This document shows positions 2,833 through 27,038 of a DNA stretch of 64,000 nucleotides, in pieces. The DNA comes from a virus, in the IMG/VR virus record IMGVR_UViG_3300001278_000001, positions 588-64,587 of that record. One strand, given 5' to 3'. The stretch's first letter is position 1, and each line of letters begins with the position of its first letter. Below the pieces are notes generated by a model. The model saw only the letters and a program-made list of their open reading frames with translations. It ran no database searches and was not told where the DNA came from. Both the position numbers and the translations under genes were made by a program.

Positions 2833-3277
2833 TTTGAAAATCTATATCAACACCTTCGTTTGGCAAAGGTATTGTTATGTTAAAAAAATTATATGATAAC
2901 TGTCGGCATTTTTCGTGAAATTGTTCTTGATTAGAAGTGTTGTTTTTTGTGGTACTTCTAGTTTTTCGTATTATTTCACCAGTATCTTCATTCACTTCTT
3001 CTACATAATTGCAATTAGCCTTTAGGAACTCATGGACATCTTCTTTAGACCAAATTTCCCCCCAAGCGTCTTCAATTGAGTTAAGGAAAATTCCGACTAT
3101 TACCTTCCAGTAATATTTGTTTTGCTTAACAGATCTTTTGTTTATTCTTTTACTGAAAGTAATGTCGATAGTCATTCCTTCATAGCACTTTACTATTTCA
3201 ATAATTCTATCTTTATTAGAAGCGAATTTTCCGTTTTTTATTAAAACAGGTAGTGTTATTTTGGAAGCGACTTTCAT
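2813..3277 (-). CDS. NinB/Orf-like recombination accessory protein
   Basis: RSVKQNKYYW motif followed by EDVHEFLK and STTK; located in the recombination cluster. Confidence 0.5.
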   Translation of the reverse strand: MKVASKITLPVLIKNGKFASNKDRIIEIVKCYEGMTIDITFSKRINKRSVKQNKYYWKVIVGIFLNSIEDAWGEIWSKEDVHEFLKANCNYVEEVNEDTGEIIRKTRSTTKNNTSNQEQFHEKCRQLSYNFFNITIPLPNEGVDIDFQNEEETP

Positions 3278-3593: not shown

Positions 3594-4904
3594 TTAATTT
3601 TCTATTATTGAATAAGTTATCTCTCCACCTTCGAAATCAGGACGCTCTATCAACAATTGCAAATCATTTTCATTAGCCCAACTTTGAATCTTATCTAATG
3701 AATTTTTATCAAGATAAGAAGCGTCAAAGTGCATAGTTTTAAGTCTTCCTAAGACTAAAGATCCTAGTTTTAGAGCGCAAATATATTTTGAGGAGCTAGA
3801 TATTTGATTATCATTTAATGGAAGACCGTTGTAAGTAATACCTTCATCTGTTAATTTGAATTCCTCAGGCAGATTTGCTTTCTGTATTATTTCGGTTTTT
3901 TCTGTGGTTATTTTTTCTAATTCTTTGTTTAAAGAATCAACCTTAGATCTAGCAGTTTCACCCTCTTTAATCCAATCGTTGTATGATTTAAGGTTTACTT
4001 GATATGCGTCAGACTTAGATTTGTTGTCGTATGCGTCGTCTATTCTTTTGTCAATATCAGAAAAATCATGGTATTCAGGTTCTTTTAGAGTGGATAATTC
4101 CTTAAGTTCCTCAGGAGATTCCATTTTATCGTAAAATCTACTTATTCCCTCTAAATCTATAAATGCGGTTATTTCGTGAGCATCTTCATCTTCAAATTGT
4201 TCTATAATTGACCAATCAGCCATGAATTTATCACGTCTATCTTTTCTTGACTTTTGTATATCATTATGAGAAATAGATTCTTTTTGATTTTTTTCATTAT
4301 CAGAAACCCACTTTTCCTTAAGCTTAGTGTTTTTGTCTACTAAATTTTGCTTCTCTTTCTTAAGAGATTCTATGTTTTCAAATTCTACTTTCTCAGGTTT
4401 TTGCATTTTAATAGCTAAAAGTCTTTTAACTTCTCTATTGGCAATTGTCCTTTCGTCGAACTTCAATTTATATTTCTGATCTAATTCAGATAAATCTATT
4501 CCTAATAATTTTTGAACCTGTTTTAATTGTTCTTTCATGCTACTAGAAATAAACCTATCTATACTGAACTTAGATCCAAAATATTTCTCACCGATAGCAG
4601 ATAAGACTCCTGTAGTCATTTTAATATCATCAGCAGTGGTAAAGGAGAAGTTTTCTGTTTTTTCTGTAAAGCTCCATGAGATTTTAGATCCATCAGTTAG
4701 CTCCATAGAGTTTATTCCTTTAGATTCACCTTCTTTTACGATAATAGATGGTTTTTCTCCTCTAAATCTATCGACAAGTCCTCGTAGAACGCTAGATTTT
4801 CCTTTATTATTCCCTCCTACAATTATTGCGGAAGCTCCATTTAATTCTATATGTTGACTAGATACTGCTTTGTAATTTCTTACTGATATTGATTTTATTT
4901 TCAT
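3594..4904 (-). CDS. SMC/Rad50(SbcC)-like coiled-coil ABC ATPase
   Basis: N-term Walker A GGNNKGKSS, long central coiled coil, C-term signature-like ISSSSKY and Walker B/D-loop HFDASYLD. Confidence 0.72.
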   Translation of the reverse strand: MKIKSISVRNYKAVSSQHIELNGASAIIVGGNNKGKSSVLRGLVDRFRGEKPSIIVKEGESKGINSMELTDGSKISWSFTEKTENFSFTTADDIKMTTGVLSAIGEKYFGSKFSIDRFISSSMKEQLKQVQKLLGIDLSELDQKYKLKFDERTIANREVKRLLAIKMQKPEKVEFENIESLKKEKQNLVDKNTKLKEKWVSDNEKNQKESISHNDIQKSRKDRRDKFMADWSIIEQFEDEDAHEITAFIDLEGISRFYDKMESPEELKELSTLKEPEYHDFSDIDKRIDDAYDNKSKSDAYQVNLKSYNDWIKEGETARSKVDSLNKELEKITTEKTEIIQKANLPEEFKLTDEGITYNGLPLNDNQISSSSKYICALKLGSLVLGRLKTMHFDASYLDKNSLDKIQSWANENDLQLLIERPDFEGGEITYSIIEN

Positions 4905-6618: not shown

Positions 6619-7639
6619 TTATTTTAATTTTTCTATTATTAAGTTTAGGTGTTTGACTTCTGATTGAAGACGCTCTATTGTTTTATTTTTTTGTTCTACA
6701 ACTTTATTGAATCTTTCTTTTTCAAACTGATACGGAGTTTGTAGAGGGTCGGCACAAATATAATCTTCTTTGTCTAAAGTGTATATTGTTCCGTAACACA
6801 TTGGAATAAAAACTTTTTCTAAAGTTTTCGGATCTATTGTGTAATGACATTTCATTAGGTTACATCTATTTCGGAATAACACAAAGAATAAGATGTGGAT
6901 TTTTTTTGAAATTGGCTTAAATAAAAATCAAGTCTCATACCATTTAAATTCTCTAATCCTATTATTCTAAAAAGCTTCTCTTTACTAAGCTCAATTCCGT
7001 CGATAGATGCTTTATAGAATTTGCCAAAATTAGTAATCGTGACATCAATTTTGGATTTTGATTTTTCCATGAATTCTAAATAAGTTCCTCCTGATAAGTC
7101 AATATCTGAGAGATAAGCTTCTTGAAGATGCCTGTAATCTCTAAACTGTGATTTGTCTGCCATATTTTAAAATATTATATATCCGAACCAATCTATTGTA
7201 GTAAGGCATTACGTGTTTTTTTCCTGAATTTGCTCTCAAAATATTCAAATGAGATTCAAATGTTGCCTTAGGATCTAAAACTGTTTCAGATTCATTTAAC
7301 TTAATTTCCTTTTTTTCAAATTTATGAGTGGAGAAAAAAAACTCCAATTCTTTAATCGTTACTGGCATTTCTTTTCATTATTTGTAAATGACCAACTCTT
7401 GGGGATTTGTAGGGGTCATATTTTCCAAAAATAATTCCTTTATTAGATGCATATTGAATAAAATCTTCCATTTTATCTTGAACACATTTTCTTTGCCATA
7501 TCAGTGTAACATGGTTGTAAGATTTGCTACCCCAATCATATCCTAGACCAACATAAGAGAAATCTTTATGAAAATTCTCTAAAAAAGAATACATGCTTTT
7601 TTTAGTAGGGAATCCATTTCTGTATTTTAAATCACTCAT
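6619..7639 (-). CDS. Four small hypothetical ORFs (6619-6882, 6855-7163, 7141-7368, 7352-7639)
   Basis: Overlapping start/stop chain on the operon strand; no recognisable motif. Confidence 0.6.
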
Positions 7640-8046
7640 TTTTTATCTAAAAAATTAATACAAAGTTTAATTACCTTTTTACAAGTAGTTATATTGAAAA
7701 ATCCAATGTGAGTATAGTCTAATGGAATTTCCAGTTCATCAGATAACCACTCATACGCTTCATTTCTAGTTAAGTGTTTATCCATCCAAATCTTATCAAA
7801 CCAATCGTGACAAACCTTCTTGTATTTTCTTAATTCACTATTAGCTAATCTTCCGAGTGAACTTCCATCTTCTTCGTGAGTTCCAACGTAACTATCACAC
7901 TTAGGAAAATTCACACAACATATCATAGATTTGTTATTGTAGGATCTGCCATAAATGAATTCTTCTGAAACAACTTTTGTTGTAGAATTACAATAAGGAC
8001 AAGTTTTTCCTGAGTAAACATTTTCTTGATGTGGTGTTAAGTCCAT
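7636..8046 (-). CDS. DUF3268-type zinc-finger protein
   Basis: CPYC...C..FPKCDSYVGTH...LGRLANSELR...CHDWFDKIW...RNEAYEWL...HIGFF. Confidence 0.75.
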   Translation of the reverse strand: MDLTPHQENVYSGKTCPYCNSTTKVVSEEFIYGRSYNNKSMICCVNFPKCDSYVGTHEEDGSSLGRLANSELRKYKKVCHDWFDKIWMDKHLTRNEAYEWLSDELEIPLDYTHIGFFNITTCKKVIKLCINFLDKK

Positions 8047-9162: not shown

Positions 9163-10005
9163 CTAATCTAGTTTTAGTTTTTTAGTAAAAACAGTTTTTT
9201 TATCCTCAGCAGACAAGTTTCCTCCTTTTATGAAATACTGATGAATTAACGTATTAATCATTCTAGCTCCTAGAGTGTTCATTTCATAATTCTCAGCCAT
9301 AAAAGCCTTTATTTCATAAACGGCTTTCTCTTGATCGCATTCGTCATATATAGATAAATAGGTTTTAAGCAACTCACTTCTGTCTAATATTTCATACAAA
9401 TGATTTAGACTTAAATCTTTTGTATTGAAGCATAAACCTACTCTTCCTAAGAATTCAGTTTTTATCCCAAACTCTCTAAGATCATCTACGGTAATATCTG
9501 CTTGATTATTGAAAGCTCCTGCGAAAATAAATAGGCAGTTTTTCGTTATTGCTGATGCAAACTTTCCATAATCGTGAAAAACACTTGTAGTTTCACTCTC
9601 TAATACTTTTAAGAACTCATTTTGAACTCCATTTGTAGTTTCGTGAGCTAATTGACTATTTGTGTTTCCGCTAATAAATAGCTTATCAAATTCATCAACA
9701 AAAACTATTGTTGGAGAATTACCCATTTGTAAAAGAGGGGATAGTGCCTTGCTTAGAGAGTTACCGCTAGTTCCTTCTTTAGTAAGTGAAGCCCCATTTA
9801 TTTCTAAAAAATTAAGTTTTAGAAATTTACAAATAGTGCTGACTGTAAGAGTTTTACTTGATCCTGATGATCCTGTTAATAAAAAATGAGGTCTTATTTG
9901 ACTTTCAGAAGCTAAGAATATCTGAAATATCTTAACCAACTGCTTTACTAATTTCTCTTGACCTACAACCTCTTTGTTTACTTCTACTTCAATGTTTGTT
10001 TCCAT
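9163..10005 (-). CDS. Minimal ClpX/HslU-like AAA+ ATPase
   Basis: VVGQEK, LLTGSSGSSKT, VFVDEFDKL, GVQNEFLKVLE, FIFAGAF, DLREFGIKTEFLGRV and LGARMI are colinear with the ClpX core. Confidence 0.82.
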   Translation of the reverse strand: METNIEVEVNKEVVGQEKLVKQLVKIFQIFLASESQIRPHFLLTGSSGSSKTLTVSTICKFLKLNFLEINGASLTKEGTSGNSLSKALSPLLQMGNSPTIVFVDEFDKLFISGNTNSQLAHETTNGVQNEFLKVLESETTSVFHDYGKFASAITKNCLFIFAGAFNNQADITVDDLREFGIKTEFLGRVGLCFNTKDLSLNHLYEILDRSELLKTYLSIYDECDQEKAVYEIKAFMAENYEMNTLGARMINTLIHQYFIKGGNLSAEDKKTVFTKKLKLD

Positions 10006-10036: not shown

Positions 10037-10216
10037 TAGTACTGGCAGGAATCGAACCTGCTTGATTGGAGTTTAATCTATTGAATATTTAAGTTTTTAA
10101 TCTGATAACACCTTTAGGCTATTCACGACAGTAATCGAATCTTTTACTAATATTTAACCATTAAACCAACCTATAAGACATATCCACTTTTGCGTACACC
10201 ATTACACCACAGTACT
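10037..10216 (-). ncRNA. tRNA-like RNA with a 130-nt structured insert replacing the anticodon/variable region
   Basis: Acceptor AGTACTG/CAGTACT (7/7 WC), U8, D-arm GTGT-AATGGTGT-ACGC, T-arm GCAGG-TTCGATT-CCTGC, discriminator A. No CCA encoded and no canonical anticodon arm. Confidence 0.8.
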
Positions 10217-10219
10217 TTT

Positions 10220-10918
10220 TTACTTGTTTTTCAACTGAGTTATTCTCTCTGTAACTCCTTTGATTTGATTGGGGGTTAGTTGAAAAATTGCCAATGTTTT
10301 TGTTAAGTCTTCAACCGAAGCATCTTTGAGGGCTTTTTTGTATCTAGCATCAGTTAAAGGTTTTTTACCTGTTCCTGTTGATTTTTTAGGCTCTTCTTTT
10401 TTGGGTTGTTGTGATTGCTGTTGAGGTGGAACAGGTATGTCATTACTATGTTGCGGATCTGTATCATCAATTTTTCCCACAGGAGTAAGGAAAGTATAAA
10501 GTAAACAGTTTTTTAAAGCGTATGTAGTTGCTTTACCTGCTCCTTTGTCTTGAGGGTCTACACCGTGACCATAACCTGATAGTATTTGACTTTGACCGCT
10601 TTCGTGTAACAATAGATATTTTGTAGTTACTTTTGTAAACACACTTTGTTTAGTCTTTATTCCCTGAGATTGACCATTCCAAAATTGCTCTTCTTGCCAA
10701 CGGTCTATTTTTGTGCTTTCTTCAATATCTATAGGTAGAATACATAGACCGTTTTTAGCCATAGCCTCGTTAAAAACTTCTTTAACATCAGAATCCTTAG
10801 TTCCGTCGTACTGAGATTTTCCACTACCAACTTTACTGTTTTTCTCCATTCCTGTAACTTCCTTCATTACGGAAATTATGGCTTTAGCTAATTTGTCTTG
10901 ATTATTATTTTCCTTCAT
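10220..10918 (-). CDS. erf: ERF-family single-strand annealing protein
   Basis: KLAKAIISVMKEV, AMAKNGL, GYGHGVDPQDKGAGKATTYALKNCLLYTF...DDTD. Confidence 0.85.
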   Translation of the reverse strand: MKENNNQDKLAKAIISVMKEVTGMEKNSKVGSGKSQYDGTKDSDVKEVFNEAMAKNGLCILPIDIEESTKIDRWQEEQFWNGQSQGIKTKQSVFTKVTTKYLLLHESGQSQILSGYGHGVDPQDKGAGKATTYALKNCLLYTFLTPVGKIDDTDPQHSNDIPVPPQQQSQQPKKEEPKKSTGTGKKPLTDARYKKALKDASVEDLTKTLAIFQLTPNQIKGVTERITQLKNK

Positions 10919-13584: not shown

Positions 13585-13650
13585 TAATACCCTGCGGAAA
13601 ACCGCAGACGCTTAGGGCTTAAATTACTTTTTATACTCGCCCTAACGAGT
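13585..13650 (-). ncRNA. Pistol self-cleaving ribozyme, copy 1
   Basis: ACTCG-TTAGGG-CGAGT ATAAAAAG TAAT TTAAG CCCTAA GCGT CTGCGG-TTTT-CCGCAG G GT ATTA: P1, pseudoknot TTAGGG/CCCTAA, P2 TAAT/ATTA, P3, GU cleavage site at 13590/13589. Confidence 0.93.
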
Positions 13651-15471: not shown

Positions 15472-15537
15472 TCTTACCCCTTACCGAAGTAAGGACGCTC
15501 TAAGCTTAAAAGACTTTTTTAAATCGCTTAGACGATT
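15472..15537 (-). ncRNA. Pistol self-cleaving ribozyme, copy 2
   Basis: AATCG-TCTAAG-CGATT TAAAAAAG TCTT TTAAG CTTAGA GCGT CCTTAC-TTCG-GTAAGG G GT AAGA: pseudoknot TCTAAG/CTTAGA, P2 TCTT/AAGA, cleavage at 15477/15476. Confidence 0.93.
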
Positions 15538-15948: not shown

Positions 15949-16013
15949 TCCTACCGTCCGAATTAACGGACACGCTTAGAGCTTAAAGGACTTTTTAACG
16001 TCGCTCTAACGAC
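15949..16013 (-). ncRNA. Pistol self-cleaving ribozyme, copy 3
   Basis: GTCG-TTAGAG-CGAC GTTAAAAAG TCCT TTAAG CTCTAA GCGT GTCCG-TTAATT-CGGAC G GT AGGA: pseudoknot TTAGAG/CTCTAA, P2 TCCT/AGGA, cleavage at 15954/15953. Confidence 0.92.
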
Positions 16014-16306
16014 TTAAGATTTACTATATAATTAAACACCGATTCGTGTAATTTTTCAATAGTTAAATCCGTACAAAAAACAGCATCAATCTCATCTATA
16101 TAAGATAAAAGATTTTCATTATTAGCGTCTTTAATTCTTACAACTACGGGAATCAACCAATCAAAACTATTGTGATACCGCAACATATCCTCATTAATTA
16201 CAGTTCCCAAAAACAAAACTGATTTTTTATTAAACCCCCAATTTATTTTATGCCCTTCAAATTCGGCAATTACTTTGTTTCTTTCTATTATCTCGTCTAA
16301 ACTCAT
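15995..16306 (-). CDS. Conserved Bacteroidota-phage hypothetical protein
   Basis: NKVIAEFEG...LRYHNSFDWLIPVVVRI motif; its last codons overlap pistol 3. Confidence 0.65.
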   Translation of the reverse strand: MSLDEIIERNKVIAEFEGHKINWGFNKKSVLFLGTVINEDMLRYHNSFDWLIPVVVRIKDANNENLLSYIDEIDAVFCTDLTIEKLHESVFNYIVNLKSLERR

Positions 16307-26260: not shown

Positions 26261-26683
26261 TTAAGCTCCTGTGCTTCCGAAAGAACCTGATCCTCTATCT
26301 GATTTTTGAAGATTGGTTACTGGTATGAAATTTATTTTCGGAACAGGCATTATAATTAATTGTGCGACTCTATCTCCCACATTATATTCATCAAGATCAT
26401 CAACATAATCAAAAACAGCGGAAATCTCACCTCTATACCCACTATCAATAACACCAACGCAGTTCGCTAAAGTCATACCACTTTTATAGCAACTAGAACG
26501 AGGAAAAACATATCCAACAAAGCCTTTAGGTATTTCTAAAGCTAGACCGAAACCATACTTAAATACGTCTTTTTCGGCATCGTAGTTTTTGCTTATAGCT
26601 ACCAAGTCCATTCCCGCATCACCATCTACTTGATATGATGGAATTACAGCATTTTCAGATAACTTCTTAATCTTAACATCCAT
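26261..26683 (-). CDS. dut: Trimeric dUTPase
   Basis: AGMDL, FPRSS, GVIDSGYRGEI, RVAQL and RGSGSFGSTG motifs. Confidence 0.95.
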   Translation of the reverse strand: MDVKIKKLSENAVIPSYQVDGDAGMDLVAISKNYDAEKDVFKYGFGLALEIPKGFVGYVFPRSSCYKSGMTLANCVGVIDSGYRGEISAVFDYVDDLDEYNVGDRVAQLIIMPVPKINFIPVTNLQKSDRGSGSFGSTGA

Positions 26684-26684
26684 A

Positions 26685-27038
26685 TTATTTTTGAGTTTTT
26701 AGTTTGTCTATAATAATAAGTTTTCCTCTAACATTAGGCTTCGAGGAAAGAAAATCCTTAGAAACAATCATTGCTACTCCATTTTGAGACTTGTAAACTA
26801 AAAATACAATTCCATCCATATTACAAACAATGTCATTAGCCTTTAGAGATCCTTTATAATAAGATATTCTAAAAAGATACTGAGACAAGTCCTTTACCTC
26901 AAGTCTAAATATCTTAGCTATCAATAGTTTGAACTTGCTGTATTTGGACTCTCCTGATTCGGTTCTAGTTTTGGTTAGTTCAGAATTTCGAACAATAACA
27001 CTTTTGTTTTTTTGGGTTGGTTTTTTTTGATATGCCAT
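26685..27038 (-). CDS. Hypothetical protein
   Basis: ORF track. Confidence 0.55.
   Translation of the reverse strand: MAYQKKPTQKNKSVIVRNSELTKTRTESGESKYSKFKLLIAKIFRLEVKDLSQYLFRISYYKGSLKANDIVCNMDGIVFLVYKSQNGVAMIVSKDFLSSKPNVRGKLIIIDKLKTQK

Follow-up and report, generated by a model that had tools for sequence, protein, structure and literature searches.

The 180-nucleotide (nt) element at positions 10037-10216, minus strand, of a 64,000-nt stretch of viral DNA (positions 588 to 64,587 of IMG/VR virus record IMGVR_UViG_3300001278_000001; this whole stretch is called the window below) is a real, conserved phage RNA gene and a member of a widespread family. Its acceptor, D and T arms are of the kind that makes up the top half of a class-II leucine transfer RNA (tRNA-Leu), an anticodon arm is absent, and the place of the anticodon and variable arms is taken by a conserved domain with covarying helices, designated P1 and H1. 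Probably, the gene product is a non-decoding RNA of about 180 nt, in which the tRNA-Leu body serves as a handle for processing and stability and carries a functional pseudoknotted domain that acts in trans. A search of the literature found no publication describing the family.

A tRNA-shaped element without an anticodon arm

The acceptor of the element consists of seven Watson-Crick pairs (AGTACTG/CAGTACT) with U-A as the 3:70 pair, U8 (T8 in the DNA) is present, the T arm GCAGG-TTCGATT-CCTGC is fully paired around a canonical TTCGATT loop, the discriminator is A, CCA is not encoded, and the D and T arms are separated by about 130 nt. Three nt separate the stop codon of the upstream erf gene from the start of the element, and 31 nt its end from the ATG of the downstream AAA+ ATPase gene. 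A first-pass annotation, made from the letters alone, had given the acceptor, U8, the T arm, the length of the insert and both gene distances in the same way, and the sequence bears out all of them. In a membership test against the canonical tRNA (RF00005), acceptor, D and T arms stand at standard tRNA spacing. The combination of a perfect T arm, a Watson-Crick acceptor of 7 base pairs (bp) and U8 within 300 nt occurs at a single site in the window, which is the element, and is met by chance at 0.007 sites per window, as estimated from 300 first-order Markov randomisations. The D stem had initially been drawn with 4 bp and an AATGGT loop, which is possible in the sequence; homology within the family gives instead a stem of 3 bp (G10-C25, U11.G24, G12-C23) with a 10-nt loop of the class-II type, and in the alignment this D arm shows the greatest divergence within the family.

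An anticodon stem of 5 bp with a 7-nt loop (U33, R37) is absent from the element, directly as well as after any single excision. With default settings, ARAGORN calls no tRNA or transfer-messenger RNA (tmRNA) gene in the window or in the whole genome of 70.8 kilobases (kb). Rfam gives no match at the element at its gathering threshold and, with the cut-off relaxed to E 10, nothing but a tRNA match of 14.3 bits, short of the 29-bit threshold; nor does Rfam contain a family that corresponds to the element. The element is not unique to this phage, being one representative of a widespread family with a tRNA-Leu chassis.

A family of phage-borne RNA genes

A generic scan of all collected loci for a T arm and a paired acceptor at unusual spacing revealed many oversized tRNA-like genes in phage contigs. 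An element in locus L091 shares with the window element, beyond the tRNA arms, the blocks AAAGTG, CTTATAG, GGTTGG, AATGG and AAACTCC.ATCA, and two patterns derived from such blocks retrieved from IMG/VR 82 copies, representing about 28 distinct genuine members of 150-240 nt. The conserved motifs AAAGTG, CTTATAG, GGTT, GTAAAA and AACTCC.A occur in this order in the window element, as seen in the alignment and in a parse by regular expressions. A covariance model built from 14 members with the window excluded (R1) matches the window element over its full length with 87.1 bits (E 4.8e-16), the next-best match in the 64-kb window reaching 20.9 bits; the element was recovered with the filters off, and default filters miss it. 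In three Bacteroidota genomes, R1 matches genuine tRNA-Leu genes only, and these reach just 35-39 bits, so that about 50 bits of the window score come from the insert. As R1 picks tRNA-Leu genes exclusively in these host-type genomes, the chassis is objectively tRNA-Leu-like; furthermore, among 371 distinct tRNAs of all collected loci the consensus D-arm motif is restricted to tRNA-Leu. Of 28 members, 19 have A as the discriminator, and T and G occur as well.

In BLAST of the members against GenBank phages, the cultured Brochothrix phage BtpYZU01, a Firmicutes phage, proved to contain a complete member that is not annotated (L385 2494-2679, corresponding to OP750331 ~26505-26690). This member is located between a transcription regulator gene and the terminase genes, with an ordinary-looking tRNA about 80 nt past the member ahead of the latter, and its P1, GTGTGG/CCACAC, is a further compensatory variant. 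In breadth, the family thus comprises Bacteroidota-type phage contigs and this Firmicutes phage. The cultured Bacteroides phage BF1-TP2 encodes a tRNA-Leu-like chassis with a different insert (L386 2501-2616, corresponding to PQ571263 ~3829-3944), which R1 matches with 59 bits. This element, situated between a DUF4494 gene and rusA, overlaps the coding sequence gp8 annotated as a hypothetical protein, and gp8 is probably a miscalled RNA gene. Under strict filters, R1 found no full-length member in 151 Flavobacteriaceae genomes, and in a pattern scan of bacterial genomes the first 120 matches listed were all chance matches; as far as these searches reach, the family thus seems to be carried by phages.

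Searches from the element itself or from its surroundings did not lead to relatives. BLAST of the element and its 5-kb surroundings against GenBank phages gave no relevant match, the exact T-arm-plus-acceptor pattern had no match in IMG/VR, and matches of a D-loop-to-T-loop pattern were merely adjacent tRNA pairs. A 39-nt internal similarity elsewhere in the genome was discarded as a chance match within coding sequence. At the gene junction, a homolog of the element is absent from 55 loci of related AAA proteins and from 25 loci of ERF relatives, and synteny is not conserved; likewise, the element is missing from two genomes related by TerL (67-74% identity), which possess different recombinases. 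The adjacency to a ClpX-like gene, by which the element had first been placed, is not a conserved property of the family.

Members of a short subtype of 150 nt (L128 7074-7223 and L186 7069-7219) exceed the Rfam tRNA threshold with 36.9 and 31.9 bits, respectively. As they do so without an anticodon arm, annotation pipelines could mis-annotate them as tRNAs. The phage contig of the first also contains a DUF2693-FD RNA (L128 506-554; Rfam RF02926, 76.5 bits). A homolog of a DUF3268 zinc-finger protein is encoded directly downstream of short-subtype elements (for example, L186 7344-7814); in the window, which has this protein in common with that one subtype only, it is encoded 2 kb downstream of the element (7636-8046, minus strand, E 8e-40).

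Shared fold and interchangeable bodies

In the order common to the family, the acceptor is followed by TG, a Leu-type D arm, a leader consisting of TAAAGTG, a variable loop of 5-9 nt and CTTATA, and then by P1, G.T.GG with CC.A.., which is lengthened by TT/AA over a conserved CT bulge. Within P1, H1 closes right before an invariant GTAAAA, followed by a variable region and AAACT, of which AACT is invariant family-wide; past the 3′ strand of P1, 2 nt lead to the T arm and the acceptor. The leader segments AAAGT and TTATAG are unchanged across 18 aligned members. The window element and its two flanking genes can accordingly be described as follows, in 5′ to 3′ direction of the minus strand.

10220-10918, minus: gene of an ERF-family single-strand annealing protein, upstream (Pfam PF04404, E 5e-08)
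10210-10216, minus: 5′ strand of the acceptor, AGTACTG, then T8 G9 at 10209-10208 (sequence; all 7 pairs covary in 33 members)
10192-10207, minus: D arm of a diverged tRNA-Leu type, loop with A14 and G18G19 (family alignments)
10172-10191, minus: leader replacing the anticodon arm, AAAGTG, variable 9-nt loop, CTTATA (conserved in the family alignment)
10164-10171, minus: 5′ strand of P1, GGTTGG, plus TT (6 of 6 pairs with 10064-10069)
10148-10163, minus: hairpin H1, TAATG/TATTA with a 6-nt loop (closing pairs covary among members)
10133-10147, minus: junction GTAAAA, then GATTCGATT, a T-loop-like motif in this subtype (TAAAA invariant family-wide)
10129-10131, minus: 5′ strand of the predicted helix Hx, CTG (pairs with CAG at 10102-10104)
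10120-10125, minus: 5′ strand of the predicted helix Hy, TGAATA (pairs with TATTCA at 10082-10087)
10110-10119, minus: Hz, small hairpin GCC-TAAA-GGT inside the predicted pseudoknot (same place in 4 of 4 subtype members)
10102-10104, minus: 3′ strand of Hx, CAG (subtype comparison)
10088-10101, minus: A-rich loop 3 of the predicted pseudoknot (11-14 nt in 4 of 4 subtype members)
10082-10087, minus: 3′ strand of Hy, TATTCA (subtype comparison)
10070-10081, minus: conserved ATAGATTAAACT, in which AA is paired to the TT following P1 and CT forms the conserved bulge (alignments)
10064-10069, minus: 3′ strand of P1, CCAATC (family comparison)
10045-10061, minus: T arm GCAGG-TTCGATT-CCTGC (4 of 5 stem pairs covary in the family)
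10037-10044, minus: 3′ strand of the acceptor, CAGTACT, and discriminator A (sequence)
9163-10005, minus: gene of an AAA+ ATPase, downstream (Pfam PF00004, E 9e-15)

In a model-based alignment of 33 members, which is fitted to R1 itself and hence biased toward the modelled structure, paired cells amount to 99.2% versus 77% in shuffles, changes on both sides are observed in 16 of the 23 pairs, and the pairing signal collapses when the partners are slid by 1-3 columns. Parsing by regular expressions, independently of the model, gives all six P1 pairs in each of 30 distinct sequences, with compensatory changes and seven sequence variants over the family. The same parse finds the closing pairs of H1 to be diverse yet complementary, such as GGC/GCC, AACC/GGTT, GCAC/GTGC, ATGG/CCAT and TGCG/CGCA, five closing pairs being present in the window element. 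The covariation of the insert among homologs is counter to a pseudo-tRNA. A kissing or pseudoknot pairing between the leader loop and the insert fits the short subtype (CATGT/GCATG, TATGT/GCATA) and has no counterpart in the window element. A suspected likeness of GGTT...GTAAAA...AAC to Cas13b repeats was discarded.

The nearest homologs of the window element are L187, which possesses a tRNA body, and L383 and L384, two marine or aquatic contigs retrieved with the subtype pattern. All four subtype members have AAAAGA.TCGATT in common after H1, and TAGATTAAACT before P1 is invariant in them. Hx, with 3 bp, reads CTG/CAG in the window and CCG/CGG, GTC/GAC and CCA/TGG in the other three, and Hy, with 5-7 bp, reads TGAATA/TATTCA in the window and GAGGT/ACCTC, GGTTA/TAACC and GTGATAA/TTATCAC in the others, so that both helices are fully Watson-Crick with differing sequences in all four. 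The order of the strands, 5′ strand of Hx, 5′ strand of Hy, Hz, 3′ strand of Hx, a loop of 11-14 nt and 3′ strand of Hy, is predicted to form an H-type pseudoknot, the loop 3 of which, A-rich in the window element and in L187, may run alongside Hx, an arrangement known from other pseudoknots of this type. From the long interrupted helix that the first-pass annotation had proposed for the insert, comparison retains GGTTGG/CCAATC, the CT bulge and TT/AA, and does not uphold the rest. As AATATTCA would pair with the upstream TGAATA in the pseudoknot and not with TTAAATATT, and as TAATG...TATTA is the local hairpin H1, the suggested pairing of TTAAATATT with AATATTCAA is to be replaced by H1 and Hy.

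Plain stems of 19 bp and 24 bp close the same domain in L383 and L384, where a tRNA body is lacking, a small hairpin occupies the position of the D arm and there is no T arm; that the domain is kept without the tRNA body points to the domain as the functional unit. The chassis in turn carries other inserts in BF1-TP2 and in a second copy in L143, and the generic scan yielded further Leu-type chassis with unrelated inserts. Body and domain are therefore separable, which argues against a function residing in the acceptor end and for the body as a handle that can be replaced by a long stem. Among the tRNA-like genes with unrelated inserts are those of L108, L089/L102, L097/L116, L099, L111, L095 and L040, 103-225 nt in length. 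They show a paired acceptor together with U8 and a T arm, the D arm is of the Leu type in several, some are arranged in tandem, and ARAGORN with introns allowed assigns inconsistent anticodons to them.

Compared with bacterial class-II tRNA-Leu (RF00005), the element shares the acceptor of 7 bp and U8, its D arm is of the Leu type with G18G19 and its T arm is canonical, and most members of the family also have the discriminator A; it differs by the domain of about 128 nt (about 100-170 nt in the family) which replaces anticodon and variable arms, and it lies under the Rfam tRNA threshold and is not called by default ARAGORN. An engineered tRNA scaffold, reportedly described by Ponchon and Dardel in 2007, carries an RNA of interest in place of the anticodon arm and is said to be processed and stabilised by the cell. 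Whereas this scaffold is a laboratory device, the arrangement in the element is natural, conserved and built on a tRNA-Leu body. tmRNA (SsrA) likewise places tRNA-like ends around a large pseudoknotted internal domain, but is characterized by the G3.U70 alanine identity pair, lack of a true D arm, a tag reading frame and a size of about 260-400 nt; the element has U-A at 3:70, possesses a D arm and lacks a conserved frame. A group I intron in tRNA-Leu(UAA) would equally be extra sequence inside a tRNA-Leu-like gene; here, however, the insert is too short and without a group I core, no anticodon arm results from excision, and the insert occurs without tRNA exons.

Among published RNAs, RNA C and RNA D of phage T4 (species 1 and 2) come closest; these stable RNAs of 119-139 nt are encoded next to tRNA genes (PMC3014915). 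They are likewise small phage RNAs, and rnaC ends with a canonical T arm followed by an acceptor-like strand. They differ by the lack of a Leu-type D arm and of the family motifs, by another host phylum and by location in a tRNA cluster, not in a recombination module. R1 scores 15.8 bits on rnaC, on the T-arm side only, and does not match rnaD at E up to 1, so that homology is undetectable in T4. In YrlA, a non-coding RNA (ncRNA) with a tRNA-like domain, the ends form the Ro-binding stem and the tRNA-like part is internal, unlike the element, whose ends are the acceptor stem; some RNAs of this kind are reportedly phage-encoded (PMC4201824).

Genomic context, mode of action and alternatives

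The source record comprises the complete genome of a virus, which is 70.8 kb long, has direct terminal repeats and encodes a large terminase of 759 amino acids (aa), a portal protein of 808 aa and an open reading frame (ORF) of 2542 aa, nearly all genes being carried by the minus strand. Besides the ERF protein, an exonuclease-like protein and many small ORFs are encoded in the early region around the element. No promoter-like or terminator-like site was found flanking the element, which is therefore expected to be co-transcribed with its neighbours. Over the 55 loci related by the AAA gene, the neighbours of this gene vary.

Three Pistol self-cleaving ribozymes (minus strand, 13585-13650, 15472-15537 and 15949-16014; 57.7-67 bits versus a threshold of 34.5 bits) are situated intergenically in the same early operon, 3.4 to 5.8 kb upstream of the element. 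The AAA-related locus L039 equally contains a Pistol ribozyme (409-463), and at ~1440-1610 of this locus a tRNA-Gln gene is apparently nested between GGTTTGG and CCAAAC and followed by a second T-arm-like motif, so that a further composite tRNA-like element may be present there. L026 harbours, immediately downstream of an AAA gene homologous to that of the window, a tRNA-like element of 81 nt (3097-3177) with a perfect acceptor and T arm, in which an anticodon arm is not recognisable and for which neither ARAGORN nor Rfam makes a call.

The neighbours of family members are recombination and replication genes, encoding ERF, YqaJ, AAA_24, helicases, DnaB-like proteins, DnaA_C, DUF4494, DUF2303 and NinB/RusA. 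The position among them varies, as the element follows erf in the window and DUF4494 or DUF2303 elsewhere, and precedes terS in other phages. In two cases, L187 and BtpYZU01, a long stretch without coding sequence contains the element just ahead of the terminase genes; in L383, the element occupies part of a non-coding gap of 1 kb that precedes a DnaB-like helicase gene.

With respect to expression, wastewater and aquatic RNA-type libraries contain the element of the abundant L091 type. Contigs from three of the four runs cover nothing of the 12-kb locus but the element and its short flanks; in the fourth, coverage of the locus is patchy and DNA content is possible. One contig is continuous through the insert, and no joints occur in the RNA-library contigs. 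These observations suggest that the L091-type element is an abundant, unspliced RNA.

From this context and from the fold of the family, the following course of events can be proposed. Host RNase P and a 3′ tRNA-processing enzyme would cut the polycistronic early transcript and release the element, upon which CCA addition and the tRNA fold would stabilise the excised RNA. In the early replication and recombination phase, the pseudoknotted domain would then bind a conserved protein or RNA partner in trans, and as a by-product of excision, the erf and AAA messages would become separated.

Several observations weigh against the reading of the element as a processed, trans-acting RNA. Processing, stability and action in trans are what we infer, the former two by analogy with general tRNA biology. 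The minimum-energy fold of the element is not unusually stable (z = -0.29 versus shuffles), so that the structural support comes from covariation and not from energy, and the pseudoknot is based on four sequences. The source genome was detected in one algae-associated metagenome only; among the sequencing runs checked for DNA of the phage, the source sample is the sole match, and none was found among RNA runs. The RNA evidence for the L091 type consists of assembled contigs from runs selected for holding the stretch, which do not show ends and strand and can miss rare forms. No neighbour protein is common to all members, and DUF4494, a frequent neighbour of relatives, was not found in this genome. 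In some relatives, the element lies in non-coding regions of 0.7-1 kb near late genes, which would also fit a role in cis.

Such a role, as a punctuation site of the early transcript or through a local effect on transcription or replication (antitermination, origin, R-loop) without action in trans, is considered unlikely. It would agree with the lack of an own promoter or terminator and the tight packing between two genes, with the three intergenic Pistol ribozymes of the operon, and with the non-coding stretches upstream of terminase in L187 and BtpYZU01 and ahead of the DnaB-like helicase gene in L383. On the other hand, a plain cutting site needs no conserved domain of 130 nt with a putative pseudoknot, the position relative to genes is not fixed, and the RNA-library contigs of the L091 type cover the element and not its neighbours, as for a stable released RNA. 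Punctuation by RNase P and RNase Z, as initially suggested, is thus plausible as a side effect, but cannot explain why the insert is conserved and why it occurs without a tRNA body. Quite unlikely is a chargeable tRNA-Leu mimic whose function needs leucylation, be it as a ribosome factor in the manner of tmRNA, as a donor or sensor of leucine, or as a sink for leucyl-tRNA synthetase (LeuRS). The tRNA-Leu-like chassis and the prevalence of discriminator A speak for it, and, as established for tRNA-Leu identity in E. coli, bacterial LeuRS does not read the anticodon or the variable arm. Against it stand the domains of L383 and L384 without acceptor end or T arm, the occurrence of discriminators T and G, the D arm of the window element as the most diverged of the family, the altered T loops of some members, such as TGCAAGT and TATCGAAT, and the absence of tmRNA features. 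The mini-tmRNA considered in the first-pass annotation has to be rejected altogether, since the 3:70 pair is U-A and neither ARAGORN -m nor Rfam reports a tmRNA; moreover, the proposed internal frame lies inside covarying helices, in a stretch that differs by 4 nt in length from that of the nearest homolog L187.

Phages counter tRNA-targeting defences with tRNAs of their own. A decoy of tRNA or of another host RNA, which would absorb a tRNA-directed nuclease, a tRNA-modifying toxin or an immune sensor, fits an early-expressed gene in an accessory region of the phage genome and the retention of the chassis with different inserts in other phages such as BF1-TP2. This reading is nevertheless improbable, as the insert and not the tRNA part is conserved, and as a link to a defence or counter-defence gene is missing; the lack of an anticodon loop makes, in particular, the decoy for anticodon nucleases that had been envisaged unlikely. 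Group I introns classically reside in tRNA-Leu(UAA) genes, and ARAGORN with the option -i does call a tRNA-Leu(taa) with an 88-nt intron in the element, yet a tRNA-Leu(UAA) gene with a short intron of a new kind is a very improbable explanation. The call needs a D stem with a single Watson-Crick pair and passes over a good D stem. With the homologous D arm kept, none of 16 family types gives, by any single excision, an anticodon stem of 5 bp along with U33 and R37, and ARAGORN with introns is silent in 11 of these 16 types, including the nearest homolog, and gives Leu, Lys or Phe anticodons in the rest. Furthermore, Intron_gpI of Rfam is not matched even at E up to 10 by the 130-nt insert, the RNA-library contigs of the L091 type contain no joints, and the insert is also found outside any tRNA. 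Finally, a decaying pseudo-tRNA or a chance resemblance could be suspected from the shuffle-like folding energy and the sub-threshold tRNA score of 14.3 bits. The chance rate of 0.007 per window, the homologs across many phages and the compensatory changes in every helix leave this reading with hardly any credibility, and comparison of the sequences has refuted it. The original proposal of a selected, non-decoding, tRNA-shaped ncRNA that is neither a decayed tRNA nor a group I intron, a tmRNA or YrlA is supported by covarying homologs.

The reading as a tRNA-Leu body with a trans-acting domain can be tentatively extended to the family. Phages of at least two bacterial phyla possibly route a conserved pseudoknotted effector RNA, grafted into a tRNA-Leu body or a long stem, via host tRNA maturation, and the released RNA may act in trans on a conserved host or phage target in early infection, for example, by sequestering a recombination, replication or immunity protein. 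That phages of Bacteroidota hosts and of Firmicutes hosts have a conserved, covarying RNA domain in common suggests a shared molecular target.

Phage ncRNAs are poorly known, and genes of this kind are missed by tRNA finders and by Rfam; cultured phages make the family accessible to experiments. If the tRNA body is a handle for processing and stability, it is the natural counterpart of a widely used trick of RNA engineering. If true, this would also explain many of the ‘oversized tRNAs’ in phage genomes and would give phages a modular ‘tRNA scaffold’ system of natural origin for their regulatory RNAs.

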